From the NCBI GenBank assembly GCA_964457775.1, contig CAYWEW010000006.1:10805-74804 (forward strand): DNA of 64,000 nt, in the 5' to 3' direction. The first letter of the stretch is position 1, and each line of letters starts with the position of its first letter. The translations under genes and the position numbers were made by a program. The DNA is from an uncultured Candidatus Saccharibacteria bacterium. Its GTDB lineage: Bacteria; Patescibacteriota; Minisyncoccia; Phycocordibacterales; UBA5272. Positions 6,568-54,100 of this stretch are shown here, piece after piece. The notes beneath the pieces are model-generated. The model ran no database searches, was not told where the DNA came from, and worked only from the letters and a program-made list of their open reading frames with translations.

Positions 6568-6593
6568 ATTTAAAGTATAATTACTCTTCTATT

Positions 6594-9446: not shown

Positions 9447-10871
9447 ATGGCGAAAAAAGTATCTTCACAAAAAAAGAGTGTACAGAAAAAAACTACAACA
9501 AAAAATGTAGTCAAAAAATCAAAAACCAATAAGGTGGTATCTTCAAAGAAGACTACCCCTGCAGTGAAAAAATCTCTTGCAAAGAAATCACAAAAAAAGA
9601 CACCAAAGAAGACAACAAAGAAAGTCATACCTACAAAAAAAGTAACTAAGAAAGTAGTTAAGAAAGTAACAAAAAAAGTTATCAAGAAAGAAAAGAAGAT
9701 TGCTCCAAAAAAGCAAACTCCAAAAATAGAGGAAAAACCAAAGTACAAACCAAAAGCTTTCACAATTAAGACAGGTCCATCAAAACCAAAGATTGTTGAA
9801 AAACCAAAGAAAGTAACTACTCGTGATCAAAACGAAGAGGAGCTTCTAAAAAAAGGAAAGGAACGAGGATTCATTACATATGATGAGATTATTCGTTATT
9901 TCCCTACAATTGAGACGGATATTCTTTATCTAGAGGAATTGTATGAAAAGATGAGCGCTGCAGGAATTGACGTTCTAGAAGGTGGAAATCTTCTTGATAT
10001 GGATGATGATCTTCTTAAATTAGAAGGGCGTGATAGTACTCATGATAGTATACAAATGTATTTACGTGAAATTGGTCAATATCCTCTAATTTCAGGAGAT
10101 AATGAACGTGAACTTGCTATTCGTATTGAAAAGGGTGATATGGAAGCTGGAGCATTACTTGCTAAAGCAAACCTCCGTCTTGTTGTTTCCATTGCGAAGA
10201 AATACGTTGGGCGTTCATCTGATCTTACACTTCTTGATCTTATTCAAGAAGGTAACTTAGGGCTCTTTAAAGCAGTTGAAAAGTTCGACTGGAATAAAGG
10301 CTTTAAGTTCTCAACTTATGCTACTTGGTGGATTAGACAAGCAATCACACGTGCGCTTGCTGATCAATCAAGAACAATTCGTATTCCTGTGCACATGGTA
10401 GAAACAATTGCTAAGTACAAACAAGTAGTTCGTCGTCTATCACAAGATCTAGGTCGTGATCCACTCGCAGAGGAAATAGCGGTAGAAATGAATGTTGATG
10501 TTGAAAAAATTCACATTATCGAAAACATTAATCAAGACACTGTTTCACTCGAAAAGCCAATCGGAGACGATGATGACAAGTCCACACTAGGTGAATTTAT
10601 CGCTGATGATAAAATTCTTTCTCCAGACCAAGAAGCGTCACACAGAATTCTTGCTGACCAAATCAATGAAATATTAGATGATCTTTCTCCAAAGGAAAGA
10701 AAGATTGTAGAAATGCGAAATGGCCTCGGTGAGTTCGATGGCGTTATGCACACTCTTGAAGAAGTAGGGGCAGAGTTCGGAGTTACTCGTGAACGTATTC
10801 GTCAAATTGAAGCAAAGGTACATGAAAAGATTCGTTCTCATGATAAATCAGAACGTTTAAGAAATTATTAA
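9447..10871 (+). CDS. rpoD: RNA polymerase sigma-70 factor with a ~125-aa Lys-rich N-terminal extension
   Basis: Regions 1.2 to 4 are conserved ([69 protein letters not shown]). The N-terminus is a KKxxKK low-complexity tail. Confidence 0.92.
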
Positions 10872-26809: not shown

Positions 26810-27202
26810 TCATTTGATACCGTATACGATGCGGATGAGGGCACGAAGCGCTCTCGGGAGGTTCCGACCATTCTCGTAACGAGAACCACCGGATTGAGTG
26901 ACGCCGACAGCCATCCAGAAATCTTTTTGATTGAGGCCGATTTTTTGACGTACCTCTTTCAGCTTTTTGGGTGACAAAGGTTTGAAGTTCGGCTTCACCT
27001 TGTCGTTGTACACGAAACGAATGAGTGCACGTACGAACTTCGGAATGTTTCTACTGCTTTCATAGCGAGAACCACCGGATTGAGTGACACCCAAAGCCCA
27101 CCAGAATTTACCCTGGTTGAGCTTAAGTTTCCGTCGTCTCTCCTTCAGTTTTCCTGCTATGAATGTTTTGAAACAAGGTTTCTTTTGCCCGATTGGGGAC
27201 AT
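26810..27202 (-). CDS. single-chain tandem XRE-type HTH DNA-binding protein (two HTH repeats)
   Basis: Two repeats of LNQ(G/K)xFWxA(L/V)GVTQSGGSRYExxRN(I/L)PxxxRALIRxVY, matching the XRE-HTH pattern G.SQS.VSR.E.G.R.P. The repeat is also visible at nucleotide level (cgagaaccaccggattgagtgac twice). GC is about 50% against a genome value of about 35%. Confidence 0.6.
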   Translation of the reverse strand: MSPIGQKKPCFKTFIAGKLKERRRKLKLNQGKFWWALGVTQSGGSRYESSRNIPKFVRALIRFVYNDKVKPNFKPLSPKKLKEVRQKIGLNQKDFWMAVGVTQSGGSRYENGRNLPRALRALIRIVYGIK

Positions 27203-27288: not shown

Positions 27289-27735
27289 TTATTTCTCAAC
27301 TCTTTTTCTTAATTCATCTATCACAGCCTTCTCCCAGTACTTCATTGAATACCAACCAATGAGAGGTTTTGCAACTATTCTTAGCCACTGTTTATGAATA
27401 GCGACTTGATACAGATAATCAATTTGAGTCCCGTCCCTATGTTCAGACATTATGAATTCTTCATGACCAGAAGTTCCGAACTTAGGGCTTACATTATCAG
27501 AAATGTAACCTTTTCCAGGAAGGATTGTGGTTTTCATTTTTACTGGAAAATTTTGGCCAAATGATTTTGCGGTTGCATTCATTTCTAAATAATTTCCTTC
27601 ACGTTTAGTTACGCGTATAGAGTCTGCAACTTTTGGAAAATATTTAGGGAAATTTTCAAAGTCAGACATGATTTTAAATACATCTGATATTGGTGCTTTT
27701 ATAATCCATTTAGCACGAAGAGTAATATCTTTCAT
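27289..27735 (-). CDS. SRPBCC (polyketide cyclase/START-like) family protein
   Basis: Polyketide_cyc2-like pattern: IKAPISDVFKIMSDFENFPKYFP... Confidence 0.65.
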   Translation of the reverse strand: MKDITLRAKWIIKAPISDVFKIMSDFENFPKYFPKVADSIRVTKREGNYLEMNATAKSFGQNFPVKMKTTILPGKGYISDNVSPKFGTSGHEEFIMSEHRDGTQIDYLYQVAIHKQWLRIVAKPLIGWYSMKYWEKAVIDELRKRVEK

Positions 27736-27785
27736 ATATAAAAAAGTGTAGCAGAAAAATTAAAAATATAAAATGTAAATATATA

Positions 27786-27824
27786 AAAAGCCACCGACAA
27801 GCGATGGCTTTCGGTGGAAAAAAT
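27786..27824 (-). terminator. intrinsic terminator of the island family GCCACCGA..TCGGTGGC
   Basis: Minus-strand RNA CCACCGAAAGCCAUCGCUUGUCGGUGGCUUUUUAUAUA. Confidence 0.65.
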
Positions 27825-27831
27825 TATTTCA

Positions 27832-28041
27832 TTAATCAGGAATTATGACATCCTTCCATGATTGTGGAATGAGTTTGCTATCGATTCCAAAACTTTTTCC
27901 GCACGCTTCACAACTTACTTCGAATGTAGAGGAGTGATGAGAAATTTCATTGTAGTGTATATCTTTTGAAAAGACACCAAGTGAAGATTTGCAACGTGGG
28001 CACTCGACTGTGATGTAATTGTTATTCTTCAAAACTTTCAT
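27832..28041 (-). CDS. small zinc-ribbon protein
   Basis: CPRC...CEAC motifs. The start is taken at MKVLKNNNY, which is preceded by GGAGA. Confidence 0.5.
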   Translation of the reverse strand: MKVLKNNNYITVECPRCKSSLGVFSKDIHYNEISHHSSTFEVSCEACGKSFGIDSKLIPQSWKDVIIPD

Positions 28042-28096
28042 TTGTATCTCCATGTGTGTAAGAGGTCAACAAACATAATGGGTGGGAGGTTTGGGA

Positions 28097-28369
28097 TTAT
28101 CTTTCTAAGGGAATGAGTATTAATCCGGGGTTTTTCCCAGTTGATTCCCAATCAATCCTGTAGCCCATTTTAGCAAAATGTTCCTCTGAATATTTTCTGA
28201 TGTATCCCAACCGCATTTTCCACCAATTATCAAAGGCAGAGAATTGAGCTGAAGCTGACCAGAAATTCATCGTCATCGGATTTTTATTTTCTGCGTCAAA
28301 TTTTGCAAGAGCATCCAGACATTCTTTCTTCCACTCGTCAGCAGTTTTCTCGGTGAGAAGGGTTTGCAT
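28097..28369 (-). CDS. hypothetical small protein (90 aa)
   Basis: TTGACA-N18-TATTAT promoter at about 28400-28430, AGGAGA RBS, and a terminator of the island family downstream. Confidence 0.5.
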   Translation of the reverse strand: MQTLLTEKTADEWKKECLDALAKFDAENKNPMTMNFWSASAQFSAFDNWWKMRLGYIRKYSEEHFAKMGYRIDWESTGKNPGLILIPLER

Positions 28370-28495
28370 TACGGTCTCCTAAAGGAACAATACTCACATA
28401 ATACAATGATTATCTATATGTTGTCAAGTTATTTAAGAGATGGGTAAATTTATTTATATTCAATAAAATAACAGTACAGTGGTTAATATATAAAT

Positions 28496-28530
28496 GAAAG
28501 CCACCGACAAGCGATGGCTTTCGGTGGTGT
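28496..28530 (-). terminator. intrinsic terminator (island family)
   Basis: The same CCACCGA-loop-TCGGTGG hairpin, followed by T-rich sequence on the minus strand. Confidence 0.6.
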
Positions 28531-28545
28531 TTAAGTTTGAGTTAT

Positions 28546-29187
28546 TCAGTAAATAATATTTGCATCATACAATGCAGTAATCAGCTTCCTTCTGTCTGGA
28601 TTATAAACAAACATTTTCTCTTTGATTTCTGAAGGTGCGAGAGCTCGTGCTTCTCCTTCTTTTTCATTCACACGATGGAGCGCGTCATAGACATCAGCAA
28701 TGGCAACAATACGGCCGTACTCACGAATCAAGAGCTTGGTAGTCTGTCTATAATTATGAAGATATTGAGGTAGAACATCAGGGTAACCATCATCTTGGAA
28801 CTTGTGATGCCAGAGCATAGCCTCTGCTGTGAAATCAAAGCGTCCACGCAAGAGTCGATATCCATCCAAAACATGGTTCTCAATTTCTTCCTGGTCTTTT
28901 TCACTCCATGTACCAACTTTACCGAGCACATCAAGACATGTCTGACATTTACCAAGATCATGTAGTGCCCCTGCAAGGAAAAGTGGTTTTGATTCATGAT
29001 GAGTAAAATTACCAATCTTCATTGCGAGCAAACCCACACGAAGTGAATGCTCGTAGTGGAAACGAGTGACTGCGCTTTTGTCTCGCAACGGTGCGAGTAT
29101 AGAGCGTAAATGATTTTGGTTGGTTGTTGTTATCCCGATTGCTTTGGCAGTTTCCCAAAACGTAACTTCCGTCTTCGATGTTTTCAT
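28546..29187 (-). CDS. stand-alone HD-GYP domain protein (213 aa)
   Basis: Motifs HYEHSLRV, ALHDLGK, WHHKFQDDGYP (HHExxDGxGYP) and IADVYDALHRV. Confidence 0.7.
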   Translation of the reverse strand: MKTSKTEVTFWETAKAIGITTTNQNHLRSILAPLRDKSAVTRFHYEHSLRVGLLAMKIGNFTHHESKPLFLAGALHDLGKCQTCLDVLGKVGTWSEKDQEEIENHVLDGYRLLRGRFDFTAEAMLWHHKFQDDGYPDVLPQYLHNYRQTTKLLIREYGRIVAIADVYDALHRVNEKEGEARALAPSEIKEKMFVYNPDRRKLITALYDANIIY

Positions 29188-29371
29188 TAGTTATTATCCT
29201 TTCTGAAATTGAACTATTTCTAATATAAAACTATATAACAGGGGGAGGTTTGTCAAGCTAATAATCTATTATTTGTGGAAAATATAATGTGTGGTCAGTA
29301 CATAAAACAAGAAACCGCCAAAGCAATTTCTTGCTAGCGGTTATGAGAATATTGTAAAACTGATTTCTAAT

Positions 29372-29647
29372 TCAACGCAATATATAACTGTGAAGAAACT
29401 GACCAACGAACCCCAAGTTGTTCACATGGTACCAAGTTGTCCACGCTGAAACAAAAAAGAAAGGAGTGGAGATCAAAATAATCATATGGGGGATTCCGTC
29501 CAGTCCTCGACCTTTAATGTCTATTCCAACATAAACATAAAAACATGTGTTGAGCACTGTCAGTGTGATCAAAACTATAGTGGAAAAAGTCGAGGCAACG
29601 AACCAACCTGCAAAAACGAGAGCAGTAATCACAAAAATTTGTAACAT
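29372..29647 (-). CDS. small integral membrane protein (3 TM)
   Basis: Hydrophobic protein. It lies 11 nt downstream of the preceding gene and is probably bicistronic with it. Confidence 0.45.
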   Translation of the reverse strand: MLQIFVITALVFAGWFVASTFSTIVLITLTVLNTCFYVYVGIDIKGRGLDGIPHMIILISTPFFFVSAWTTWYHVNNLGFVGQFLHSYILR

Positions 29648-29658
29648 CTATACTCCTC

Positions 29659-29892
29659 TTATTTGAAATGAATAGTTAGTTCTGTGGGGTCATAGCATCC
29701 TACCGTTCCATCTTTATGCTTGACTTCATAGCACAGTCCATGAGAATCGTGGTGAGCTATGACTTCACCTTCAACCCCCCACTTACGTCGTTTTTTTCCT
29801 TCTTCAGTCCATGAATCAGCATTTGCTTCATCTTCTTGAGTGGTTCTAACGAGAGTTCCAGGAGAAATGGGTGGGTATTTTCCCGCGTTCAC
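29659..29892 (-). CDS. hypothetical small protein (GTG start)
   Basis: Strong promoter TTGACA-N17/18-TTATAAT at 29941-29970 and an AGGAA RBS. No recognisable domain. Confidence 0.5.
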   Translation of the reverse strand: MNAGKYPPISPGTLVRTTQEDEANADSWTEEGKKRRKWGVEGEVIAHHDSHGLCYEVKHKDGTVGCYDPTELTIHFK

Positions 29893-29940
29893 TGAGATTC
29901 CTTTCTAATCGATTATGTTTAAATGAAAAAGAACAAAAGC

Positions 29941-29970
29941 ATTATAACAATAAATATTAGCTTTTGTCAA
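29941..29970 (-). promoter_or_regulatory. sigma70 promoter for the 29659..29892 unit
   Basis: Minus strand TTGACAaaagctaatatttattgTTATAATgcTTTTGTTCTTT. Confidence 0.6.
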
Positions 29971-30058
29971 TTTTTAAATGATATCACGTGATGGAAATTA
30001 TTATATAAAACAAGAAGTCGCCACTAAGGTGACCCTTGTGGCGACTGTTGCAAAAACT

Positions 30059-30244
30059 TCACGATACAAGTTCTTTAGTGGTAGGAATTGTATTCTTACC
30101 ACAGTCAGGGCATTTTACTCCCTTTAACCCAACACTAATTAGTGTGGTAAACTTTTTCCATCTGGACTGTTTCTCCAAAGATTCAACAATACGACGACCT
30201 TCCCACTGGCAGTGAGGGCATTTTAGTCTTTTTTCAAGAGTCAC
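30059..30244 (-). CDS. small zinc-ribbon protein (probable GTG start)
   Basis: CPHC...CPDC motifs. The ORF-track ATG overlaps the -10 box, so a GTG start after GGAGAAAGAT is used. A terminator lies downstream. Confidence 0.5.
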   Translation of the reverse strand: MTLEKRLKCPHCQWEGRRIVESLEKQSRWKKFTTLISVGLKGVKCPDCGKNTIPTTKELVS

Positions 30245-30374
30245 ATCTTTCTCCAAAACGAACAATAATCTCATAATACAATGATTGTATATTTCTTGTC
30301 AATTATATCAAATAGCAGTAATTATATTCATAATACTTGATTGGAAGTAAACGTGAAAATGTCGGGAGCAAATA

Positions 30375-30410
30375 GAAACCACCGAACGCGCGGTGGCTTT
30401 CGGTGGGGAG
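30375..30410 (-). terminator. intrinsic terminator (island family)
   Basis: Minus strand CCACCGAA-agccaccgcgcg-TTCGGTGG followed by TTTCTATTT. Confidence 0.6.
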
Positions 30411-30418
30411 TTGATTTC

Positions 30419-30634
30419 TTAATCATCGCCAAAAAGTGCATCGCCAATGGCGGCGCCAATGAAGTCTCCTCCGACCAGTCCGCCGATTAACGTGCTATCA
30501 GTTACAGCACCAACAACGAAGCTTGTAAAAAAATCGCCATCATCTTCGTATGACACTTGACGGTATGCAACTGGACACTTGTGACTTTGTCCAGGATGAA
30601 GGATAGTCCCGCACCTGCATTTTTTCTGACTCAT
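30419..30634 (-). CDS. small peptide with an N-terminal Cys/His cluster and a C-terminal glycine-zipper hydrophobic segment (71 aa)
   Basis: MSQKKCRCGTILHPGQSHKCP ... GGLVGGDFIGAAIGDALFG (GxxxG repeats). GAGG RBS. TTGACA-N17-TATACT promoter. Confidence 0.5.
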   Translation of the reverse strand: MSQKKCRCGTILHPGQSHKCPVAYRQVSYEDDGDFFTSFVVGAVTDSTLIGGLVGGDFIGAAIGDALFGDD

Positions 30635-30700
30635 GGTAACCTCATGGATTATTAAAGAACAAAAATAGTATACCATAATATACTGAATCTGTCAACAAAG

Positions 30701-30770
30701 TTCCAATTAGTAAACAAGCTCCAAACCTTTGAAAAGGGGAAGTATGGGAGTGTGATGAGAGCATAAAAAC
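30701..30770. repeat. conserved promoter-upstream element, copy A (degenerate)
   Basis: Aligns to the 68-nt family GCTCCAACTGGTAAACAAGTTCAGAACTTTTGATTGGAGGAAGTATGAGAATGTGGTGAGTATATAAAA. Confidence 0.5.
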
Positions 30771-30822
30771 AAGAAACCGCCAGATCATACTGATCCAGCG
30801 GCAGAATTGCTTTATTCATATA

Positions 30823-31365
30823 TCAAGAATTAAAAGCAAATCTCCATATTCGTTGTAGTACACTAATCCTTTTACCGTAACGTAAACCATTATCGTATTC
30901 GTAACCATGTTTAACTAATGGCAACGTACCCTCTTCAACAAGGGGAATGCACGATTCACCACCAAGTTCAATAACCCCAGGTATATCAATCCAATTACTC
31001 AAAGACTCTGTTTTAACCCAAAATCCGCGACCTGGATTAAAGTATGTATCAACACTTATCTCACTACTGTCATTGATTCTAATTGGCTTTAACAACATTA
31101 TCTCATTAATACACATAACGAATGCACTACTTCGAAGACGGTACACAATGCTGCAGTGTAGAAGTGCTCCAACTGTACAAAACGGTATGATTGCATCATA
31201 TTGTGCCCTATACTTCTGTTCACCACAGCAACCAGCGATAATGAGAGCAATTACAACCTTGTGACCCATGCTATCTTCTAGGTCGCAAGAGAAAACTGTA
31301 TTATTACCTTCACGTATTTCTGCTTTTCGTACAACGAAATCTCGGTAGATATCTTCGTGTACCAT
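30823..31365 (-). CDS. hypothetical protein (180 aa) from MVHEDIYRDF
   Basis: AAGGAGA RBS and TTGACA-N17-TAGAGT promoter. The longer ORF-track start would run through the promoter. Confidence 0.5.
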   Translation of the reverse strand: MVHEDIYRDFVVRKAEIREGNNTVFSCDLEDSMGHKVVIALIIAGCCGEQKYRAQYDAIIPFCTVGALLHCSIVYRLRSSAFVMCINEIMLLKPIRINDSSEISVDTYFNPGRGFWVKTESLSNWIDIPGVIELGGESCIPLVEEGTLPLVKHGYEYDNGLRYGKRISVLQRIWRFAFNS

Positions 31366-31431
31366 GACGAGTCTCCTTAATTTAAAGAACAAAATTACTC
31401 TATAATTTCGGGATTTGATTGTCAAGTAGTC

Positions 31432-31500
31432 GCTCCAACTGGTATGCAAGTTCAGAACGTTTGATTGGAGGAAGTATGAGAATGTGGTGAGTATATAAAA
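31432..31500. repeat. conserved promoter-upstream element, copy B
   Basis: gctccaactggtatgcaagttcagaacgtttgattggaggaagtatgagaatgtggtgagtatataaaa. Confidence 0.7.
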
Positions 31501-31541
31501 GCAAAACCCCACCTAAGCAATGATTGCTTAGGTGGAGTGAA

Positions 31542-31901
31542 TTAAACCTGATATTCTTGTAAATTAAGTAAGTCAAAAATTTTCACTCGTACAAGATTTT
31601 CAATTTGCTCAGGAGATTCGTTACCTTCAAGAACAATGATTTTCTCTTGAGTAACTCCATCTTCCAACAATAGAGCAACGTATCCTTCACGCGTCTGACC
31701 AGAAGTGAATGTCGTATATTCTCCAATGACTACAACAACATTATCTTTGCCAAATCTCTTAACACGCATTAATCCGAGTACATCAGTTGAAGCAAAATGC
31801 AGACGTTCCAAACCCCAACCACCAACTCTTCTGGAAAGAAGGTCAAATTTTTCTCGGTTTTGATCTTGAACACAAATTATCTCAAACATACTGGGTGGCA
31901 T
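31542..31901 (-). CDS. hypothetical protein (119 aa)
   Basis: GGAGG RBS. Promoter TTTACA-N17-TATAGT with an embedded palindrome. Terminator CCACCTAAGCAAT-cat-TGCTTAGGTGG downstream. Confidence 0.5.
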   Translation of the reverse strand: MPPSMFEIICVQDQNREKFDLLSRRVGGWGLERLHFASTDVLGLMRVKRFGKDNVVVVIGEYTTFTSGQTREGYVALLLEDGVTQEKIIVLEGNESPEQIENLVRVKIFDLLNLQEYQV

Positions 31902-31924
31902 ATTGCCTCCGTTATTAAAAGAAC

Positions 31925-31954
31925 AAAAACACTATACCATAGTATAGTGTTTTT
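31925..31954. promoter_or_regulatory. 12-6-12 perfect inverted repeat (candidate operator) overlapping the -10 of the 31542..31901 promoter
   Basis: AAAAACACTATA-CCATAG-TATAGTGTTTTT. The -35 (tgtaaa on the plus strand) is at 31954-31959 and the -10 at 31931-31936. Confidence 0.6.
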
Positions 31955-31965
31955 GTAAATATCAA

Positions 31966-32034
31966 GCTCCAAACAGTACACAGGTTCAGAACATTTGATT
32001 GGAAGAAGTATGAGAATACGGTAGGTATATAAAA
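31966..32034. repeat. conserved promoter-upstream element, copy C
   Basis: gctccaaacagtacacaggttcagaacatttgattggaagaagtatgagaatacggtaggtatataaaac. Confidence 0.65.
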
Positions 32035-32075
32035 CAGGAAACCGCCGAAGCAGTCCTGTTTTGCTTGGCGGTGAA

Positions 32076-32216
32076 TCACCCCATTGCGGCACGTGACTTG
32101 CCGGTGTAATAGCAACCGCTGTTGCCGCCGGTGTAGGTACGTCCATCGTGGTAGTAATCGCAGGCAACTTCGTATTCGTAGTTGCCACATCTTTGCCAAA
32201 AGGTGACGGTGCTCAT
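32076..32216 (-). CDS. 46-aa Cys/Tyr/Gly-rich peptide
   Basis: MSTVTFWQRCGNYEYEVACDYYHDGRTYTGGNSGCYYTGKSRAAMG. GGAGA RBS. Perfect TTGACA-N17-TATAAT promoter at 32248-32276. Confidence 0.45.
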   Translation of the reverse strand: MSTVTFWQRCGNYEYEVACDYYHDGRTYTGGNSGCYYTGKSRAAMG

Positions 32217-32247
32217 CAAAAATCTCCTGGTTAAAATGACAAATACC

Positions 32248-32276
32248 ATTATACATAATATAATAGTATTTGTCAA
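32248..32276 (-). promoter_or_regulatory. consensus sigma70 promoter of the 46-aa peptide unit
   Basis: Minus strand TTGACAaatactattatattatgTATAAT. Confidence 0.65.
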
Positions 32277-32282
32277 TATGGT

Positions 32283-32349
32283 GCTCCAACTGGTAAACAA
32301 GTTCAGAACTTTTGATTGGAGGAAAGTGAATGTAACTGGTATATAAAAT
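32283..32349. repeat. conserved promoter-upstream element, copy D
   Basis: gctccaactggtaaacaagttcagaacttttgattggaggaaagtgaatgtaactggtatataaaat. Confidence 0.7.
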
Positions 32350-32401
32350 AAAAAAAACACCCCGATCTATGTCGGGGTCGCTTTGTGAAGTGGAGCAGGG
32401 C

Positions 32402-32758
32402 TTACGCCGAATCTTCTTCAAACTCGAGTTCGAATTCTCGATCGCCGAGAGGGTTGTTGTAGTCCGGCATGAACCGCATTGATCGCCTAGCGTCGACTGG
32501 CGAGTAATGGATCTCATAGTCGTTATCATCGCCGTTGCGGGTCTCGTCGTAGATCAGTCGTTGGAGTTCTTCGGCTTTTGGCGTGATAATCCGCAAGCTC
32601 TTCTCTTCGCCCATTCGGCCACGCTGAACCTTCGAGATTTCATACGGCTTACCACGTTGCTTGAGGAATTCGATCATCGCCTCGCGCTCACGCTCGTAGT
32701 TGCCCACGAACACATCCAAACAGTGGGATGTCTCAACTTCGGTGCTGGTTTCGCTCAT
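32402..32758 (-). CDS. acidic hypothetical protein (118 aa), GC-enriched
   Basis: Start at MSETSTEV preceded by AAAGGAA. GC is about 50%. Terminator CCCCGA-catagat-TCGGGG followed by T8. Confidence 0.5.
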   Translation of the reverse strand: MSETSTEVETSHCLDVFVGNYEREREAMIEFLKQRGKPYEISKVQRGRMGEEKSLRIITPKAEELQRLIYDETRNGDDNDYEIHYSPVDARRSMRFMPDYNNPLGDREFELEFEEDSA

Positions 32759-32887
32759 GATACTATTCCTTTCGTATTGAACAATGAGTACCAACAACAC
32801 TAATACAGTATTATATTTTTGTCAAACAAGTTCTAAACCCTAATTGGGTAAATGAAAAACACCTTATGTAAAAGGTGCTTTTCAAGT

Positions 32888-32926
32888 GCTCCAACTGGTA
32901 AACAAGTTCAGAACTTTTGATTGGGC
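32888..32926. repeat. conserved promoter-upstream element, copy E (half-copy)
   Basis: gctccaactggtaaacaagttcagaacttttgattggg. A further degenerate fragment lies at 32821-32852. Confidence 0.55.
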
Positions 32927-33032
32927 AAAAATAAAATAACAACATTTAATTATAACCTTTACAAATTAATAAGTAGTGATAGTATAAAGAATAGTAGTTA
33001 TGTTTAATTTCATTTTTATTCGGAGATGAATA

Positions 33033-33221
33033 ATGTTTTACTTGTATAAAACTTTGTTTCGTAATGTGATTACATCTTTCCTACTTATTAATTTGCTTCT
33101 AATTGCAAATTGTAGTGGTGAGAGCGATGGACATGTTTGTGGTTGTGGTTGTGGACGATGGATACCAAAGGAACGTCCCAGTCAGTGTGATGAAAATGGG
33201 AATTATAATGGAAATTATTAA
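33033..33221 (+). CDS. small Cys-rich exported (lipoprotein-like) peptide, 62 aa
   Basis: Signal peptide with LIANC. CGCGCG cluster. GGAGA RBS. TTTACA-N16-TAGTAT promoter. Terminator AAAAAACACC-atta-GGGTGTTTTTT at 33230-33262. Confidence 0.4.
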   Translation: MFYLYKTLFRNVITSFLLINLLLIANCSGESDGHVCGCGCGRWIPKERPSQCDENGNYNGNY

Positions 33222-33419
33222 TTCATTCCAAAAAAACACCATTAGGGTGTTTTTTATTTTATCAGTTCGATGGGTGATCGTTCAGCTAGTTGGTATTTTA
33301 TTTCATAACTTCGTTATTCATAAAACACCCAACTTCTCGACTCCGAGGAAAACCAACAAAATTTTTTCTAAAAATATTTGAGCTCAATTTTTAGAAAGAA
33401 ATTGTGTAGACCGTTTTCC

Positions 33420-33468
33420 GTTCGATCCCTACGTAAAGAAGGTAATCCTTCTTTACTACCCACCGAGC
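33420..33468 (+). repeat. inverted partial copy of the tRNA-Asn 3' end (T-arm plus acceptor) interrupted by a 24-nt palindrome
   Basis: GTTCGATCCCTAC[GTAAAGAAGGTAATCCTTCTTTAC]TACCCACCGAGC against the tRNA sequence GGTTCGATCCCTACCCACCGAGC. TAC is duplicated at the insertion point. Confidence 0.7.
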
Positions 33469-33505
33469 CAAATGAAAAACACCCCGTAAGGGATGCTTTT
33501 CATTT

Positions 33506-33576
33506 GGCTCCAACTGGTAAACAAGTTCAGAACTTTTGATTGGAGGAAATATAAAGAGGTGTTGAGTATATAAAAA
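33506..33576. repeat. conserved promoter-upstream element, copy F
   Basis: gctccaactggtaaacaagttcagaacttttgattggaggaaatataaagaggtgttgagtatataaaaag. Confidence 0.7.
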
Positions 33577-33610
33577 GAAAGCCACCGAATGCGCGATGGC
33601 TTTCGGTGGT
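33577..33610 (-). terminator. intrinsic terminator (island family) downstream of the pilin gene
   Basis: AAAGCCACCGAATGCGCGATGGCTTTCGGTGG. On the minus strand the hairpin is followed by a T-run. Confidence 0.6.
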
Positions 33611-33627
33611 GTTTGTGAATTAACTGA

Positions 33628-33945
33628 TTACTTGTTTGCAGGGCATTCACTGAATTCGTAGTTGAACAGTATAGAAGTATCCAGACAGTACTCTTTTCGG
33701 GAGCCGTCTTTGTTTTCAACCTGCAGGACTGATTTGTCAAAAATATTTCGCTGAGTGGTAAGAATCTTTGAAACACTGGAATGCGAAACTTGAAGCTCGC
33801 GCAGGGCGCTATCGGTCTGAAACCAAAAGTTTCCCTGACATACTGTTTTTATTGCAAACACCCAACCAACAACGACAATGATGAAAATAATTACAAAGAC
33901 AGTCAAAAGTTCAATCAAAGTAAAACCGCGATTATGACTTTTCAT
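33628..33945 (-). CDS. type IV pilin/pseudopilin-like protein (prepilin N-terminal methylation motif)
   Basis: MKSHNRG/FTLIELLTVFVIIFIIVVVG is a class III signal with G-F-T-L-I-E. Two Cys residues lie in the C-terminal part. Confidence 0.7.
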   Translation of the reverse strand: MKSHNRGFTLIELLTVFVIIFIIVVVGWVFAIKTVCQGNFWFQTDSALRELQVSHSSVSKILTTQRNIFDKSVLQVENKDGSRKEYCLDTSILFNYEFSECPANK

Positions 33946-33981
33946 ATCTCACTCCTCAAAATAGTTAATGAACAATAGAAC

Positions 33982-34011
33982 AAAAACACTCTACCATAAT
34001 AGAGTGTTTTT
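33982..34011. promoter_or_regulatory. 12-6-12 perfect inverted repeat (candidate operator) overlapping the pilin promoter
   Basis: AAAAACACTCTA-CCATAA-TAGAGTGTTTTT. The -35 (tgtaaa) is at 34011-34016 and the -10 at 33988-33993. Compensatory changes relative to the 31925 copy preserve the dyad. Confidence 0.6.
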
Positions 34012-34023
34012 GTAAATAGCTGA

Positions 34024-34095
34024 GCTCGGTGGGTAGGGATCGAACCTACGACCAATTCGTTAACAGCGAACTGCTCTACCGCTGAGCTACCACCG
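34024..34095 (-). tRNA. tRNA-Asn (anticodon GTT)
   Basis: Minus strand: acceptor TCGGTGG/CCACCGA, D-arm GCTC-AGCGGTA-GAGC, anticodon stem GTTCG/CGAAT with loop CTGTTAA, T-arm GTAGG-TTCGATC-CCTAC, discriminator G. CCA is not encoded. Confidence 0.85.
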
Positions 34096-34285
34096 AATAT
34101 TTTATTATTTACACAATATTTTACTATAAAAGTATTCCACTCCTATTTCAAATGTATTCATAATAATACACAAAAAAGTGATTTTTTGCAAGAAGAATTT
34201 TTGTGTATAAGTTAAGCAAGATAAAATTATGAAAATAAAAATCCCTGCATTTTGCAGAGATTTTTAGTGATTATTCACACATTAA

Positions 34286-34993
34286 TTAATGTGTATGGTG
34301 CTCAAGTCTTCTAAACAGATGAGCAACGGCCATTACTGAAACAGGAATAGTAAGAATAAGCCCAACACCAAAGGCGAGAAATCCTAGAGTATTAAGAACA
34401 GCAACAATAACAAAAAATCCTAGTAGCTGCCAAAATGCACAACAAGTCAATCTGTATGCGTGTTTAATAATATCAACTATTTTCATATTCTCGTTTTCAA
34501 GTAGAACGTAAGGGTAAAACTTAAAGCGGATTGCAATATAAATAGCAGGTACGAACATTAGAGTTGTTGTAAGTAATACCATCAAAAGTTTTCCATTAAG
34601 TGCTGAAAAACCATTTAAGAACACTGAACCAATTGTTATTGACATTGCTGCAATAAATGGAATTATAAACACAGAAACTGCCGCTACATAAATAACAGTA
34701 AGAACTAAAAATTTAACAACTAGATTTGGTGAACGTAATCTGTTGAACATATCTTCAAATGAAAAGCTACCATCACGAACCATAATAAGTGACATTGATA
34801 GTAGTGATAACGCACATAGTAGTGCAGTTAATTGTTCCAAAAAGGGAACCAATCTAACCGCACTCATAATTACTGCATAAATCACAAACATACAAGCCAA
34901 AAACCACGCATGTTGTTTTGTTTTAGACCATGCGAAACTAAATATTTCTTCGAAATTAATTTGTTGTTTTGTCATATGTTTAAAGTATAACAA
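34286..34993 (-). CDS. polytopic membrane protein (DUF975-like)
   Basis: Six or more TM helices. No catalytic motif recognised. Confidence 0.5.
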   Translation of the reverse strand: MLYFKHMTKQQINFEEIFSFAWSKTKQHAWFLACMFVIYAVIMSAVRLVPFLEQLTALLCALSLLSMSLIMVRDGSFSFEDMFNRLRSPNLVVKFLVLTVIYVAAVSVFIIPFIAAMSITIGSVFLNGFSALNGKLLMVLLTTTLMFVPAIYIAIRFKFYPYVLLENENMKIVDIIKHAYRLTCCAFWQLLGFFVIVAVLNTLGFLAFGVGLILTIPVSVMAVAHLFRRLEHHTH

Positions 34994-48112: not shown

Positions 48113-51100
48113 TTATTCTTCGGCTTTAATACACCCTAAATCCTTAATTCTATCTCTTGTTAATTTGTCTGCTTCACCTGTAACTGTAAGACTGTTGTCC
48201 TCCTGGAACTTTTTAACTGCTTTTTTTGTTATATTTAAGAAGTTGCCAGTTACTTTAGTGTTGAAGTATCCTTGCTTTCGGAGATAATACTGTAATTGTG
48301 ACACTTCACCGTTAGTATTATTATCTCTTTTACCATATAACATTTTACTTTTCATGTTAGTACACATTGATTCAGTAAAAGCGCCGAGTACCATGCCATG
48401 ATTTATGTTTCCAGAATTAACAAGCGCGAGAGTATTGTCATTGTAAAGTGTTCCGACATTACCACCTCCACCTCTTCTTCGTGTTGGAGTAGTTGTTGAT
48501 TGTTGTGTTGTGGTAGTAGCAGTAGATTCAGTTATAGTGCTTGTGGACGTAGGACTACCATCTGCTCCACCACCAGTCACTGTCGTAGTTGCTACAACAG
48601 AAGGAAGTTCAAAATTTAGAGTTCTTCCTCCTCCTCCTCCACCTGCATTATATCTAAATATTCTAGACATTGTAGTAATCTGAGGTGTTGCAGAATAAGT
48701 AAAATCAGAAGCGTCCCCATTATTTGACAACCTAAAACAGTAAACCGACCCTGGCAATATATCTCCAGTTGAGCGTATTAAGTACTCAATTTCAGTGTAT
48801 TCACCTTCGTAAAGAACCGTAGGACGAGAAAGACTGTTAAAGGTTTGCATTCTTCCTGTTCTAAACACTTTTCCATTTGGAACACTTATTCCACTTGAAT
48901 GTGTTGTTGACGCGCTATCACTTACATATGAAGATGTGTCTATTTTGAAATGTTCATTAGTATAATCACTTGGTCTTGGCACAGCAGTCCATGAAGTACA
49001 AGAACCATATGAGTACTCCAGCTGATAACGTTTATTAATTAATGATGTTGTGTGGTTGGTAACAACGAAACGCAATCTAATTTTGTCTCCAGTAATAAAA
49101 TCACTAGCCATTGGCGTGTTTTCTGCAATATTATAGGTAGCAGATGATTCATCTCCATTGTCTTGTCTTAGACGATAGGAAGTTACAGTTACATTTGATG
49201 CACCCACATTAGGAGTAGAAGGAGATCCTTCAATTGATGAGACTGCGGTATAGACAGTACCGCTCTTGGTAAATACTTTGAAGTAATATGCGGTACTATT
49301 AGATAATCCAGTAGCTATACATGAGTCATAAGTAGATGTAGCTATTGTAGAATCGACACAGGCAACAGTTGCAGATCCTATAATGTCATTTGTTGAGTAT
49401 GTTGCCCCATTAGATGGACTATCAGTAATTGTCTGGGTTGAACGTAGGACTATTACTTGATTAAATGACGGGTTAGATGGAATAGTATAATCAATAGTTG
49501 CTTGAGAGTTGTTTGGGGTAACAGTCAAGTCTTCGAGATTGGTAGATCCCGATTCCTGGGAGCTTGCTGTAGGAACTGTTGGAATCATGATGGATTCAGC
49601 GAATGCTGCGTAGATGTAAGTTGCTCCTGTTGAATTATACCCACTACCATTGTCTCGCGCTTTAAATCCATTAGCAAGAATATCTATTCGTCCGGTTGTC
49701 GTATCATCCGCATTTGATGAGTTAGCGTACAACAAATAGTTTGCCGAGTTGTAACCTGCACGAGTTGTGTCGAATATATTCCAATGCTCTGTTCCACCAT
49801 CAATACGCTTTGTTAAAATATATCTCGGCTTGAATCCTGTATAAACAAAAGCTCCGTCTGAATTTCCATTACCGGTGTAACTTCCGAATTTAGAGTACCC
49901 AGGCACTTCTGACCAAACATAAGCAACATAGGTGTACCCACTAGCGCTAACACCAGTATTACCTCCAAGGTTCAAAACTGAATCAGTTGATGTTGCGTAA
50001 AATCTTGTAGAATCGTTCGTTAGTGAAGCTGCCTGACTAAGAGCTAACCAATATGTTCCTCCTCCAAAATTACTATTCCATGTGTACCAATTCTCTGCGC
50101 CACCGGACCTCGCTTTTACAATAGCAAAATTTGGTGCAGTGCCCAACCCATGACCGACGGTCTTGTTGTCACCATTACCAGAACTTGACCCTGAATATGA
50201 AACAATAGAGAATCCCGCAGTAGGATTAGCTGATACTGTTGAAGTAATGGTTCCTGATGTGTCTGTGGTCGTAGCCCCACTCGCCTTCCAATTCCACGAG
50301 ACAAAGGTGTCTCCATTGAAATTCACACGACCTGACCCAGCGTTATCAGTACCAACAGTAAATCCGTCGGAATTAAACGATGTTAATCCATACCCTGAAG
50401 CTTCTGCTGTTTCAGTATTTGTTGTATCAGATTCAAGATGTTTTCGTGCTCCACGTACAGAATCAATAATATTACTACTTGCTGATGTGTTTCTATCTTT
50501 TATCCAGACTAAATCTGGTTGAAAATCAAGACCTGTTATTGATTGTGTACTTCCCGTCCCCGTATATGTCGCCACATCAAAATACAGGTTAGGTTTTAAA
50601 ATTACCGGGGTTGATAGATTTGCAGTAGAGAGAGATTTGAATCCTTCGGGTGGAGTATAGGTAAATGATTTTTGACCGAAGTTGGCAGTAAAATAATTTC
50701 CTCCACCATACGAAGCCATTGCTGGAACAAAAACACCAGATAAAGAACTAAAGGCAACCCCCTGTGACACTCCATTTTTATAGAAAGTTAGCGTTCCAGC
50801 ATCCATATCTAAAGCTGTTCCAATAACATCACCATTAGTATAGGTGGAGCCATAAGCAGTACCAGAATTACTGGTATACTTTTGCCCATTTTGATCGTAT
50901 GAATAACTTAACGAATCACTTCCAGGGAAATATCCATTGGCATAGGTACTAAGACTTGCAGGAGAGATGCCAACATCAGTTCCAACTGATACAGCTCCAA
51001 TATTAGTTTCCCAGTACCATTTCCCAGAAGAAACACCAATGGTTCCTAATTTTGTTTGACTATTTGCAGTAAGCGCACTAAAACGTAAATTACCAAGAGA

Positions 51101-54100
51101 AAGTGTTCCTGCGCTCAAAGTTAAAGCGTTAAGTGTAGCAAAATTATTAAGAGGAGTATCCGTCACTTGATTGTTGGTAGATGTTATCCCACCGTTTGAA
51201 GCCCAGTTATTTGAATTACCTGAACTGTCTGCGCCGACTTGATTACTATTACTGAAATTCAGACGGAATCCATTATTTCCATATGAGCCAATGTACTTCT
51301 TTGGAATCCAATTGCCTGTCGAGGAAGAAGTCTCTCCGAATGATGCTGGTGTTAACTGTTGTCCATCAATAAAATTAACATCCGATAAATAGCCGTCATA
51401 ATAATGTGCACCTGTAGCTTTTGCAACTTGATGTGATATTGCAGAATTAAAACCTTGTGAATAATTTAAAGCGGGGTAATTTGCAGAAGAGAAGGAAGTT
51501 ATTTGCGTCCCATTAGAAAAGATTTTGACTCTATCCGATGATACGGCTTGAGTTGTGTCCACTGCAAGCACAATATGATACCAAGCAGATGGGTCACGAA
51601 AAACTTGTGTAGTGTTTAGATTACTACTAACTGCAGCATTGTTATAATATTGAATATGGTCATTTAAATCAAAAATAAGTTCATCCGTTGTACCTGGTGC
51701 AGCAAACAATGCTGGATAACCAGACGTCAATTTACTGCGCTTGACCCAACCTGACCATGTAAATTTTTTATTATCAGTTGGAGTAGAAAATGTTCTGTTA
51801 AGATACTGACTCTGCGCACTATCAAACATAAGTGAATTCGTAAGGCTGTCAGTCGTGAAGGTAGAGTCAGATGAGTAAGCAGTACCATAGGAGTTGGTAG
51901 CATAAGCACTATAGTAATAAGTGGTAGAAGTAGCGAGACCAGTAATAGATACAGTGAACACTCCAGTAGTTGTACCTGTACCTGCTGTACAGTTAGTGAT
52001 AGGTGCAGGAGTAGAACCATAACACACCCCACGTGATGTTATGTTAGAACTTCCTATAGTGTCTACTGTTCCACCTATTACTGCAGTTGTTTCTGTTGTC
52101 GATGTTGCTGTAGGAGATGAGAGTGTGGGGAGAGATGGTACTGTTGGGACCATGACAGATTCAGCAAAGGCGGCGTAGATAAATGTGCCACCATTGGTGT
52201 TTAGATATGATATTGATGACCTAATCTTAAAACCATTAGACAAGATATCTCTATCATACGCATGATCAGGACTCTCCCCTTGTGAGAGGTTTGGAAAAAG
52301 TGGATTATAATTCACATTGTATGAGTCTCTTTTTGTATCAATAATATGCCAATCATTTGTAGAATCTGTTCTTTTAATCATTATCCAACGTGGTTTAAAT
52401 CCTGTGTAGATGAATGGTCCATCCGCAGAGCCATTACCAGTATAACTACCAAATTTTGAGTAGCCTTGAACTTCAGCAAATGAGTAAGCAACTAGATCTG
52501 CACCACTAGCTAAAGGTGTAGAGGTTAGGCCAAATGTTGTCGTTGACCATGCCCCACTCCAATTTGATGAACCATTTGATTGTGCTGCTGTTGTTGATAA
52601 ATCAAGATAATAGTCAGCGCCTGTTAATTTTTGATGCCAAACATTCCAGCCTGTAGTACCAACATTGTCTCTAGACTTGAATATCACCATTGTTGGGGTT
52701 GCGTTCAATCCATGACCAACTGTTCCAGTAGAACCAGATCCTGTAAATGTAGCAACAGAGAAACCTGCGGTTTGATTTGCAGAAACAACACTTGTGACAG
52801 TCCCAGAAGTATTTGTTGTTGTGGAATTGCCTGCTTTCCATAGCCAATCAACATAGGTAGCCCCATTTGCGTTATTATCACTATCATTTGCATTAAGGGT
52901 GTACCCATCTGCTGTCGAAGAGAAAGAGTGAAGCGATGGTGCTCCACCATTATATGCTTCATATCCTGTAGTGTTAGAGCTTAGTGACTTACTCCCACCA
53001 AAACCTCGTACAGCATCCTGAAGATAGTGGTTTGTAGAACCACTACGTCCTTTACTCCATATTAAATCAGGCTGAAACACTAATCCTGATTTTGTATACC
53101 CTATTGCTGTGCCCGTACGAGTTACAACATCAAAATGTTGATTTGGTTTTAAAATGGTCGGAGCCGGGAGGTTTGCAGTAGAGAGAGACTTGAATCCTGT
53201 TGGTGGGGTGTAGGAGAAGGACTTTTGACCGAAGTTAAGTGTAGCTGATTCAGTTTCAGCATCAGGATTTACTCTAAAAATCGGGAAATAACCGGTAACA
53301 CTGGAAGATGCGAAAGTATGACCTCCACTATTTGTTACTGGATTACTTCCATTGTTCCATGTTCCATTTTTACCAAACCAAACTTTTCTAAGTGATGGAC
53401 TTACGGCAACCATTATAGTGTCACTTGTAGTATAACTAACACCATCTGATGTAGAGCTACCAGGAATTTTGATATAATCCCCTCCACCATGAGCAATTAC
53501 TGCAGCTGCATCACTACCAGAACCAGCAGATGTTTGAAATATATTTCTATTGGTTTCTATGTCCCAGTCAACAACACCAACTTGGCTTGATGAAATAGTT
53601 CTAGTAGTATTATTTAGTTTTGCTTCAAAATATGTGTCAAAATCTTTTATTGGCATGCTTGCCATAACACCATAAATATTATAGTAGCCACCACCAAGTG
53701 AGGAAGTTAAATTACCCTTAGTTAATGAGAGCGAGGAAGATCTCTGAAGTGGGTTTAATGTTGCAAAGTTATTAAATGGAGTATCAATAAATTGATTCGT
53801 TGTTGAACTCATACTACCGTTCGTTGTCCATGTATTTGCTGTAGTGTGTGTAGAGTCAATTGGTGCAGTATCAAGACCAAGAGCAGTACTACTACTGAAA
53901 TTAAGATGAAATCCATTTACTCCATAAGTGCCTTGATATGATTTTGGAATCCAGTTGCCAGTGTTACTGTCTGATTTTCCAAAGTAACTTGGAGTAAGAG
54001 CTTGGCCGTCGACGAAGTTAACATCGGCCATGTATACATCGGAGTAATCAGCGGAATCCATTTTAGAAATATAATGGGCGTTCGCAGCATTAATACCACC

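Follow-up and report, generated by a model that had tools for sequence, protein, structure and literature searches.

Directly downstream of the tRNA-Asn(GTT) gene of an uncultured Candidatus Saccharibacteria bacterium (contig CAYWEW010000006.1) lies an array of small genes punctuated by a repeated unit of ~80 nucleotides (nt). The whole stretch analysed, 64,000 nt or 64 kb long, is referred to here as the window. The region is probably an additive, hypervariable island of gene cassettes at the 3′ end of tRNA-Asn, in which the units would be the recombination sites at the cassette ends. This reading builds on genomes in which the end of tRNA-Asn and the unit precede the same modules, on exact repeats of target-gene 3′ ends in Chlamydiae, and on a content that turns over at a conserved position. 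Related genome loci used for comparison are given as L-numbers (L003 etc.).

The Array and Its Repeated Unit

ARAGORN places tRNA-Asn(GTT) at 34096..34024 on the minus strand (Rfam tRNA, 69.8 bits). Between it and the gene for an SRPBCC protein (27735..27289) are 12 minus-strand open reading frames (ORFs) and one on the plus strand, encoding proteins of 46–213 amino acids (aa), as described in the original prediction, which had been made from the sequence alone. The prediction counted 13 independent units; the 13 ORFs are instead carried by ~11 promoter-terminator units, two of which hold two genes (p77 and p91, 29892..29372; p90 and p73zn, 28369..27832) with no terminator between the partners. 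The near-consensus sigma70 promoters and intrinsic terminators noted there are enriched over shuffled sequence, with 44 promoter-like sites against 28.3 ± 6.0 and 18 terminator-like sites against 5.4 ± 2.7. Two of the promoters are perfect TTGACA-N17/18-TATAAT sites (32276-32248 and 29970-29941). One terminator family, CCACCGAAAGCCAyCGC, is present in four copies (27801, 28511, 30390 and 33593) where 0.01 would be expected by chance, and has no copy in the rest of the 64 kb. The GC content of the array is 0.37–0.43, compared with 0.30–0.35 in the flanks.

A profile search finds six copies of the ~80-nt unit, each in minus-strand orientation and within 30.7–33.6 kb (high-coordinate ends at 33585, 32930, 32354, 32043, 31510 and 30776), and none in the rest of the window. 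A 37-nt core is matched four times at ≤3 mismatches, with none expected. The shared upstream element that had been predicted is thus real, but only six units carry it at a length of ~68–80 nt. Read along the minus strand, the full repeat consists of a terminator, TTTTATATAC, ~20 nt, CCTCCAATCAAAAGTTCTGAAC and TTGTTTACCAGTTGGAGC, followed by a palindromic promoter or by a plain hairpin with other non-coding sequence. Within it, TTTTATATAC and the ~20 nt lead into an invariant 19-nt arm, CCAATCAAAAGTTCTGAAC, and then 3 nt, a T, 5 nt, 7 nt ending in GGA, a G and a C. In the four units most distant from the tRNA, nothing is left of it but a 5′ stub (TTTTATATA...) or a shortened core (~30340).

The palindromic promoters are near-perfect palindromes from the ACA of the -35 element to just past the -10 element (window 29941-29970, 32237-32276, 31923-31956 and 33980-34013; also L063, L053, L074 and L022). 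Their sequence varies from copy to copy with the palindrome kept, and they can also be read as a hairpin followed by a T-run. At 32236-32264 the promoter also reads on the opposite, plus strand (11/12).

The Unit in the Place of a tRNA 3′ End

After its GAAC, the Saccharibacteria unit continues with 3 nt, T, 5 nt, 7 nt ending in GGA, G and C, which is the spacing of the 3′ strand of a T-stem, the 3′ strand of an acceptor stem and a discriminator base. The spacing is identical in the Saccharibacteria/Patescibacteria and in the Chlamydiae described below. As in tRNA-Asn genes, 32 of 37 units end in ..GGA-G, and C comes next in 27 of those 32. Units share GGAGCAC (7 nt) with the resident tRNA-Asn in L102 and GGAGCAAATT (10 nt, tRNA end plus flank) in L079. 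In the window, L023, L102, L079 and L106, an array begins directly 3′ of tRNA-Asn and shares its strand.

Alignments reveal that “tRNA end + flank” is clearly equivalent to “unit + flank” for three modules. “Hairpin A” follows tRNA-Asn in L102 and a unit in the window (32930-32829), L003, L023 and L047. “Hairpin B”, together with a ~125-nt structured element that resembles tRNA-Asn, follows tRNA-Asn in L023 and L106 and a unit in L003, L047 and L102. The palindromic promoter-hairpin follows tRNA-Asn in the window and at the second tRNA-Asn of L106, and a unit in the window (31956-31923), L063 and L104. The p119 cassette likewise stands directly after tRNA-Asn in L106/L107 (82% nucleotide identity) and fifth in line, behind a unit, in the window.

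The ~125-nt element has the look of a rearranged tRNA-Asn and recurs at L003 7150-7292(-), L047 5742-5868, L102 3368-3494(-), L023 1040-1172, L080 3945-4075 and L106 ~6205-6400, with a degenerate copy at 33400-33470(-) in the window. An acceptor-like stem (TCCGCGR.../...YCGCGGA-G) closes it, one hairpin shows compensatory changes, GGGATCGAATACGGGGTCG and GTGACCGATCCCTAC are conserved, and the 3′ end reads GATCCCTAC-TCGCGGA-G. Across five sequences, 11 of 39 predicted pairs are changed on both sides, and the element matches no Rfam family. Just downstream of tRNA-Asn in L102, between hairpin A and the first unit (~3860-3600, minus strand), a TTGACA-N17-TATACT promoter, ~250 nt without an ORF and a strong terminator make up a candidate non-coding RNA.

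Junctions at tmRNA and tRNA-Tyr in Chlamydiae

The 19-nt arm is also found in ~72 Chlamydiae loci (each ≤8 kb). Ten of these include the single-copy transfer-messenger RNA (tmRNA) gene, and in all ten the tmRNA gene lies upstream of the motif on the same strand, at a distance of 0.8–5.9 kb. Upstream of tmRNA, the Chlamydiae encode IleRS. Three further loci have a tRNA-Thr/Tyr pair upstream, again on the same strand.

In its 3′ half, the motif carries a copy of the 3′ end of the upstream tmRNA or tRNA-Tyr gene. The tmRNA gene ends in ...GTTCGATTCTCTCCACCTCCA and the motif reads ...GAAC-GCG-TCTCTCCACCTCCA, plus up to four identical flanking bases. The tmRNA repeat is exact over 14–18 nt in L030, L043 and L058, extends over 15–17 nt with 1–3 mismatches in L077, L087 and L021, and is weaker or absent in L029, L039 and L091. 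The tRNA-Tyr repeat is GTCCAACTGC(C/T)CCCATTTAG in L084 (19/20 nt) and CCAACCGCCCCCA in L086 (13/13). The two sequence classes into which the Chlamydiae motif falls are thus a tmRNA type and a tRNA-Tyr type. One terminator module follows tmRNA/tRNA-Tyr in some loci and the motif in others.

This arrangement is characteristic of an attachment-site (att) junction, in which an element-side arm, a repeat of the target and the old flank follow one another. The original prediction had seen no att-like structure in the window; in light of the exact repeats of tmRNA and tRNA-Tyr ends, the repeat itself is the att-like feature.

One or two accessory genes lie between the tRNA/tmRNA gene and the Chlamydiae motif, including Fic (18 loci), RhuM and AbiEii/AbiEi; none is an integrase. 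Two ORFs of 86 and 109 aa in L058 are presumably DUF4160- and DUF2442-like, as recognised by eye. Fic/DOC genes of three architectures are the commonest cargo beside the motif (L016, L021, L029, L033, L034, L038, L039, L045, L057, L062, L075, L076, L086, L088, L091, L099 and others), and RhuM, AbiEii/AbiEi and small helix-turn-helix (HTH) genes recur near it.

Distribution of the 19-nt Arm

A scan of one genome per species (596 Gb) with the pattern CCAATCAAANGTTCTGAAC, which has 18 specified bases, returned 97 loci, where ~17 would be expected by chance according to our own arithmetic. About 12 matches within coding sequence of unrelated taxa look like chance. The remaining loci fall into two groups, Saccharibacteria/Patescibacteria and environmental Chlamydiae. 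By profile, same-strand arrays of the unit are found in L003 (six copies), L074 (five), L023 (four), and L102, L079 and L106 (two to three). The ~72 Chlamydiae copies read CCAATCAAAAGTTCTGAAC-gcGTC(TCT/CAA)CC(A/g)CC(T/c)CCA and are followed by an intrinsic terminator. Within each genome, the core is present in single or low copy and is clustered. When metagenomes were scanned with a stricter pattern, no more than four loci came up.

Phage contigs of IMG/VR, plasmids and phage records lack the core, and BLAST found no match to the unit among plasmids or phages, nor to the Chlamydiae motif among plasmids. A phage or plasmid origin was set aside: IMG/VR gave two matches, one in coding sequence that looks like chance (L100) and one that could not be read (L101). 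A dispersed repeat of the repetitive extragenic palindrome (REP) or miniature inverted-repeat transposable element (MITE) type was rejected as well, given six window copies within 3 kb and one to two exact, clustered copies on megabase Chlamydiae contigs; terminal inverted repeats were not specifically searched. By inspection against the consensus sequences, the motif fits none of a true tRNA T-arm, a dif/Xer site, integron R-boxes, an NrdR box, boxA, or sigma28, sigma54 or extracytoplasmic function (ECF) promoters. A literature search found no paper describing the motif or the arrays.

A hidden micro-ORF was also considered, since the reverse strand reads ...VQN[FVIL] and a stop, and in Chlamydiae the ten codons “MEVERRVQNF”. 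It is ruled out by the third-codon positions, which are invariant in 72 copies while the first and second positions vary, and by several Saccharibacteria copies that have no start codon.

Regulatory Site or Small RNA?

In the original prediction, the repeat belonged to the promoter downstream of it and the array was a conserved regulatory chassis. On that view, the unit is a cis-regulatory site (an UP element or activator site at ~-62), and the array arose by local duplication of a promoter-terminator module with replacement of the cargo. The core does contain a palindrome, AAGTTCTGAACTT, and lies at a nearly constant 24–28 nt upstream of the -35 element in the “type i” units. A candidate binding protein is encoded beside the array and the SRPBCC gene: a 130-aa protein (26810-27202, minus strand) composed of a tandem pair of RsaL-like HTH domains (Pfam HTH_92, E=2.2e-42, two stretches), which, judging from its domains, could bind repeated DNA sites.

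The unit is nevertheless always physically joined to the terminator of the upstream gene and not to the downstream promoter, and its 5′ part stays fused to that terminator even where the core has been lost. Some units have no promoter downstream at all. After the unit at 33585-33502 come a hairpin and a tRNA-like fragment, and the gene beyond them is on the opposite strand; in many other loci the unit is succeeded by a plain terminator hairpin. In Chlamydiae, the orientation of the neighbouring genes is random, the motif is followed by a terminator, and a regulatory site would have no reason to carry copies of tmRNA and tRNA-Tyr ends. Nor are the units local duplicates, because they are shared across genomes at an identity above that of housekeeping genes: the non-coding modules are 75–95% identical between genomes whose housekeeping genes are 66–71% identical. 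With a repeat spread over two phyla that takes the position of the tRNA 3′ end relative to the modules downstream, a regulatory chassis built by local duplication is very improbable.

Another possibility is that the units are genes for small or tRNA-like RNAs, consisting of a ~40-nt core and the terminator hairpin and transcribed from a weak promoter (TTTTAT..N16..CATACT). Such RNAs might act in trans, for example through an anti-Shine-Dalgarno-like CCUCC stretch, or might be processing signals. A hairpin and T-run do follow every unit in both Saccharibacteria and Chlamydiae, a -10-like element lies ~7 nt upstream of CCAATC (with A at -8 in 85% of the Chlamydiae copies), and the conservation of the core is extreme. 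There is, on the other hand, no convincing -35 element, and the trailing hairpins are explained as former terminators of tRNA or tmRNA genes. An RNA stem closing the core, CUCCAA/UUGGAG, is conserved but shows no compensatory change and is absent from the Chlamydiae and L079, and it was rejected. Searches with the Rfam 15 covariance models matched only tRNA and tmRNA, both in the window (at the gathering threshold and at E up to 5) and in nine related loci (at the gathering threshold), with no match for the unit. We consider a small-RNA function improbable, although it would be compatible with an att origin, as the two are not mutually exclusive.

A Conserved Slot with Variable Content

The position of the island is conserved. 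PriA, Def, Fmt, a peptidyl-prolyl isomerase (PPIase), the ribosome hibernation factor HPF, a 235-aa membrane protein (mem235, 34993..34286) and tRNA-Asn lie on one side, and SRPBCC and/or an ABC transporter on the other. The slot from mem235/tRNA-Asn to the ABC transporter is syntenic in L102, L023 and L106. Its size varies, the shortest version being that of L102 (~1.3 kb) and the longest that of the window (~6.2 kb, with the SRPBCC and HTH genes in addition). SRPBCC itself is 71–74% identical in L053 and L073.

The content, by comparison, turns over, in agreement with the cassette-type accessory island beside a tRNA gene that had been predicted. Only three of the 13 cargo proteins (p119, p91 and p73zn) have relatives in any other locus, where the genes around them differ. 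Homologues of p119 number only four among 5.8 billion proteins. The p119 homologue of L003 is 75% identical and that of L108 94%. p91 is 64% identical to an L023 ORF directly behind a unit, and p73 is 65% identical to an L053 ORF in the same position. In L108, a close relative, 91% nucleotide identity extends over the 574 nt from unit 4 through p119 to unit 5, with unrelated ORFs on both sides, and the similarity to the window starts exactly at the TTTTATATA that opens the unit.

L106 has two tRNA-Asn genes 3.6 kb apart (6094-6168 and 9770-9842). The second is a chimera, in which a 5′ acceptor strand of host type (TCCGCAG) faces a 3′ strand of foreign type (CCACGGA), leaving two acceptor mismatches. 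Upstream of it are a 5′-end fragment of tRNA-Asn (TCCGTGGTAGTGGAGCGG) and part of a second, foreign mem235 gene (8678-8935). Because the chimeric gene stands next to the foreign mem235 fragment, recombination inside the tRNA gene and the import of larger segments must also occur.

These traces raise the possibility that no site-specific system is involved. The locus would then be a hotspot of homologous recombination following DNA uptake, with the tRNA gene, the units and the flanking genes acting as portable homology, like the “minimal mobile elements” of Neisseria. Saccharibacteria are naturally competent, L106 has evidently received such a segment, the breaks in homology between L108 and the window fall inside units, and the hunt for a recombinase was negative. 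Yet homologous recombination leaves unexplained why the 19-mer should be joined to a copy of the target 3′ end, with identical spacing, at three targets (tmRNA, tRNA-Tyr and tRNA-Asn), and why the 19-mer is invariant across two phyla. As the whole explanation, it is rather unlikely.

Insertion sequences also land in these islands: L073 has two DDE (rve) transposase genes, the first of unassigned family and the second IS30-like, inside a Saccharibacteria array of units on the opposite strand (5109-5984 and 6362-7237, plus strand).

A Model for Growth of the Island

The island reading can be put together as follows. Moving away from the tRNA, each cassette would consist of a hairpin, one or two small cargo genes, an intrinsic terminator and the ~80-nt unit. 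The leading hairpin would end the transcript of the tRNA or the preceding cassette while holding the sigma70-type -35 and -10 elements for the next. Such a dual hairpin would be a compact design, by which the inserted gene is expressed without depriving the tRNA of a terminator. Towards its 3′ end, the unit imitates tRNA-Asn in the arrangement of T-stem 3′ strand, acceptor 3′ strand and discriminator. It would be the recombination site, attP-derived and attR-like, at the far end of the cassette.

Insertion would then occur by recombination between the site of a cassette, presumably present as a free intermediate, and the 3′ end of either the tRNA gene or an older unit. The new cassette would come to sit beside the tRNA, and the sequence that formerly flanked the tRNA would be shifted outward, now preceded by a unit. 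By repeated insertion the array would grow in this order and its outer units would decay. A gradient of this kind is partly seen, with identical 37-nt cores in the three copies nearest to the tRNA and only stubs in the four most distant cassettes. Recombination between units, or within tRNA-Asn, may also exchange cassettes among lineages. The recombinase would have to act in trans, because none is encoded nearby.

Several points weigh against this model. A crude regular expression, Pfam on selected ORFs and clustering of neighbouring proteins revealed no tyrosine or serine recombinase, either in the 64-kb window or in ~100 related loci; for the window, whose ORF list was included, this agrees with the original prediction, which had reported neither an integrase nor a transposase in the region. 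The only transposases seen in the hunt are the DDE enzymes of insertion-sequence type in L073. Identity between the window units and the resident tRNA-Asn is limited to GAGC (4–5 nt), so that the direct repeat here is one of layout and not of sequence. The quality of the units does not fall smoothly with distance from the tRNA, and unit 5 has the best profile score. The fixed spacing of 24–28 nt between unit and -35 element would also fit a regulatory site upstream of a promoter, and L106 demonstrates a contribution of ordinary homologous recombination, with larger imported segments, to the shape of these loci. The comparison set, finally, holds no pair of near-identical genomes with an empty and an occupied site by which the crossover could be fixed. 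The alternatives discussed above are still weaker than the island reading, and are partly compatible with an att origin of the unit.

Features of the Window

The features of the array are listed in Table 1. Only two cargo proteins score above the curated Pfam cut-off, through a pilin N-methyl motif and an HD domain; the remaining ones are orphans. Comparison of the cargo with PHROGs gave nothing useful, and PADLOC gave only weak Cas3-HD-like matches, to the HD protein. These reflect the HD fold, and defence-system cargo was rejected. Elsewhere in the window, two neighbouring giant ORFs encode proteins of 2513 and 2370 aa (48113-55654 and 55952-63064, minus strand).

Table 1. Features of the array, in order away from tRNA-Asn (window positions)
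Feature	Position	Strand	Description
tRNA-Asn(GTT)	34024..34096	-	Anchor and presumed primary insertion site; own promoter-like site 34151-34123
Palindromic hairpin directly after tRNA	33980..34013	-	Start of cassette 1; terminator-like stem (15 pairs, then T-rich) and TTTACA-N17-TAGAGT; listed by the scan as both promoter and terminator; 85% like 31923-31956, which follows a unit
Cassette 1 cargo	33577..33945	-	105-aa pilin-like ORF 33945..33628 (Pfam N_methyl, E=1.2e-6); terminator 33604-33577 of the CCACCGAAAGCC family
Unit 1	33502..33585	-	TTTTATATAC...CCTCCAATCAAAAGTTCTGAAC-TTG-T-TTACC-AGTTGGA-G-C; nhmmer E=2.8e-19
Hairpin, then degenerate tRNA-Asn-like fragment	33400..33510	-	Hairpin arms 33510-33490 and 33485-33465; fragment begins TCGGTGG(G)TAG, matching the 5′ end of the resident tRNA; 84% identity to L023 2621-2773
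Plus-strand unit	32958..33255	+	Promoter-like site 32958-32985; 62-aa ORF 33033..33221, Cys-rich with lipoprotein-like N-terminus, no Pfam match; terminator 33231-33255
Unit 2, hairpin A and partial second core	32829..32930	-	Unit 5′-truncated (32930-32883); second core 32892-32829; nhmmer E=4.2e-13; identity 94.8% to L003, 93.8% to L102/L047, 89% to L023
118-aa orphan cassette	32359..32837	-	Promoter-like site 32837-32810; ORF 32758..32402; terminator 32378-32359; GC-richest part of the array (0.43); no Pfam, PHROG or PADLOC match
Unit 3	32279..32354	-	nhmmer E=2.5e-17; core with 0 mismatches
Cys/Tyr cassette	32039..32276	-	Palindromic perfect promoter TTGACA-N17-TATAAT 32276-32248; 46-aa ORF 32216..32076; terminator 32056-32039
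Unit 4	31962..32043	-	nhmmer E=2.5e-19
p119 cassette	31506..31959	-	Palindromic promoter/hairpin 31959-31923; 119-aa ORF 31901..31542; terminator 31538-31506
Unit 5	31430..31510	-	nhmmer E=1.7e-21
180-aa orphan cassette	30776..31425	-	Promoter 31425-31397; ORF 31365..30823; terminator 30802-30776
Unit 6	30698..30776	-	Degenerate; nhmmer E=1.9e-12
Gly-rich cassette	30376..30695	-	Promoter 30695-30667; 71-aa ORF 30634..30419; terminator 30399-30376
CxxC cassette	30020..30375	-	Truncated unit remnant ACTTCCAATCAAG ~30349-30337; promoter 30302-30273; 71-aa ORF 30274..30059; terminator ~30047-30020
Two-gene unit (p77, p91)	29311..30015	-	5′ unit stub TTTTATATAA...; perfect promoter 29970-29941; p77 29892..29659; p91 membrane protein 29647..29372; terminator
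HD cassette	28496..29310	-	Stub; promoter; 213-aa stand-alone HD (HD-GYP-like) ORF 29187..28546 (Pfam HD, E=3.8e-13); terminator 28522-28496
Two-gene unit (p90, p73zn)	27786..28495	-	Stub; promoter 28427-28398; p90 28369..28097; p73 zinc ribbon 28053..27832; terminator 27812-27786; last cassette ahead of the conserved SRPBCC gene

Significance and Comparison with Known Systems

In Saccharibacteria and environmental Chlamydiae, host-dependent bacteria with reduced genomes, the ways in which accessory genes are acquired and exchanged are poorly understood. The junction signature, CCAATCAAAAGTTCTGAAC plus a tRNA or tmRNA 3′ end, provides a sequence tag by which variable loci can be located in metagenome-assembled genomes, their cargo listed and co-occurring recombinases searched for. 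So far, the cargo of Saccharibacteria consists of small proteins that are orphans, secreted or in the membrane, and that of Chlamydiae of the toxin-antitoxin genes Fic, RhuM and AbiE.

Integrons are a known system of cassette capture. A recombinase encoded outside the cassettes, IntI, inserts cassettes bearing attC sites at the primary site attI, so that the newest cassette lies beside it, and expression is from a common promoter, Pc. The arrays described here are similar in having very small, mostly orphan genes in the same orientation, a site-like element at the far end of each cassette, no recombinase within the cassettes and a newest cassette that would adjoin the primary site. They differ in that the place of attI is taken by a tRNA or tmRNA gene, at its 3′ end, with no intI beside it (upstream of the tRNA are mem235, HPF and PPIase), and in that the cassettes are not promoterless, as most cargo genes are preceded by their own near-consensus -35 and -10 elements. 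The units also have neither the imperfect inverted repeat of attC (R''-L''/L'-R'), which folds as a hairpin, nor any long inverted repeat.

Tentatively, the arrays may reflect an integron-like form of cassette capture aimed at tRNA and tmRNA genes, in which small self-expressing cassettes, whose site combines the 19-nt arm with an imitation of a tRNA 3′ end, are inserted singly by a recombinase encoded elsewhere. Its targets would be tRNA-Asn in Patescibacteria and tmRNA or tRNA-Tyr in Chlamydiae, and it would be common to these two host-dependent phyla, which have otherwise few known mobile elements. Should a trans-acting recombinase indeed move single cassettes, the arrays would represent a second, independent answer to the problem that integrons solve.

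Small accessory modules are also swapped between conserved flanks or short sites in the minimal mobile elements of Neisseria and in the Xer-dependent dif modules of Acinetobacter plasmids. The exchange of small accessory genes is a shared feature, whereas those modules have no link to tRNA genes, and the unit, by inspection, has no dif-like site of the 11-6-11 type.

Cis-mobilizable elements (CIMEs, a term used in PMC5704250 and PMC6323972) are flanked by att sites, have no integrase and accumulate beside integrative elements. They resemble the present arrays as att-bounded tandem segments without an integrase at a site-specific locus, presumably mobilised in trans. CIMEs, however, derive from larger elements by decay, and neither regular one-gene units nor arrays of at least six are known among them.

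The closest parallels are islands at tRNA and tmRNA genes. In Prochlorococcus, islands derived from tycheposons have partial tRNAs scattered within them, and new elements push older ones inward (bioRxiv 10.1101/2020.12.28.424599). The ssrA islands of Dehalococcoides are reported to be of the same additive type next to a tRNA or tmRNA gene and to grow by repeated integration (PMC3146451). An island directly 3′ of the tRNA or tmRNA gene, partial tRNA copies inside it, older elements displaced by newer ones and variable content at a fixed position are common to all. The elements of those islands are kilobases long and encode their own tyrosine recombinase, whereas the modules here measure 0.3–0.8 kb, usually with one gene and their own promoter and terminator, and have no recombinase. 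In the window, moreover, the tRNA-like repeat is an imitation, and the 19-nt arm is common to Patescibacteria and Chlamydiae. Variable content between conserved flanks, as expected of tRNA/tmRNA islands, is found here without an integrase of its own. What sets these arrays apart from the known islands is a combination of one-gene, self-expressing cassettes, no integrase, an imitation tRNA end and a 19-nt arm shared by two phyla.

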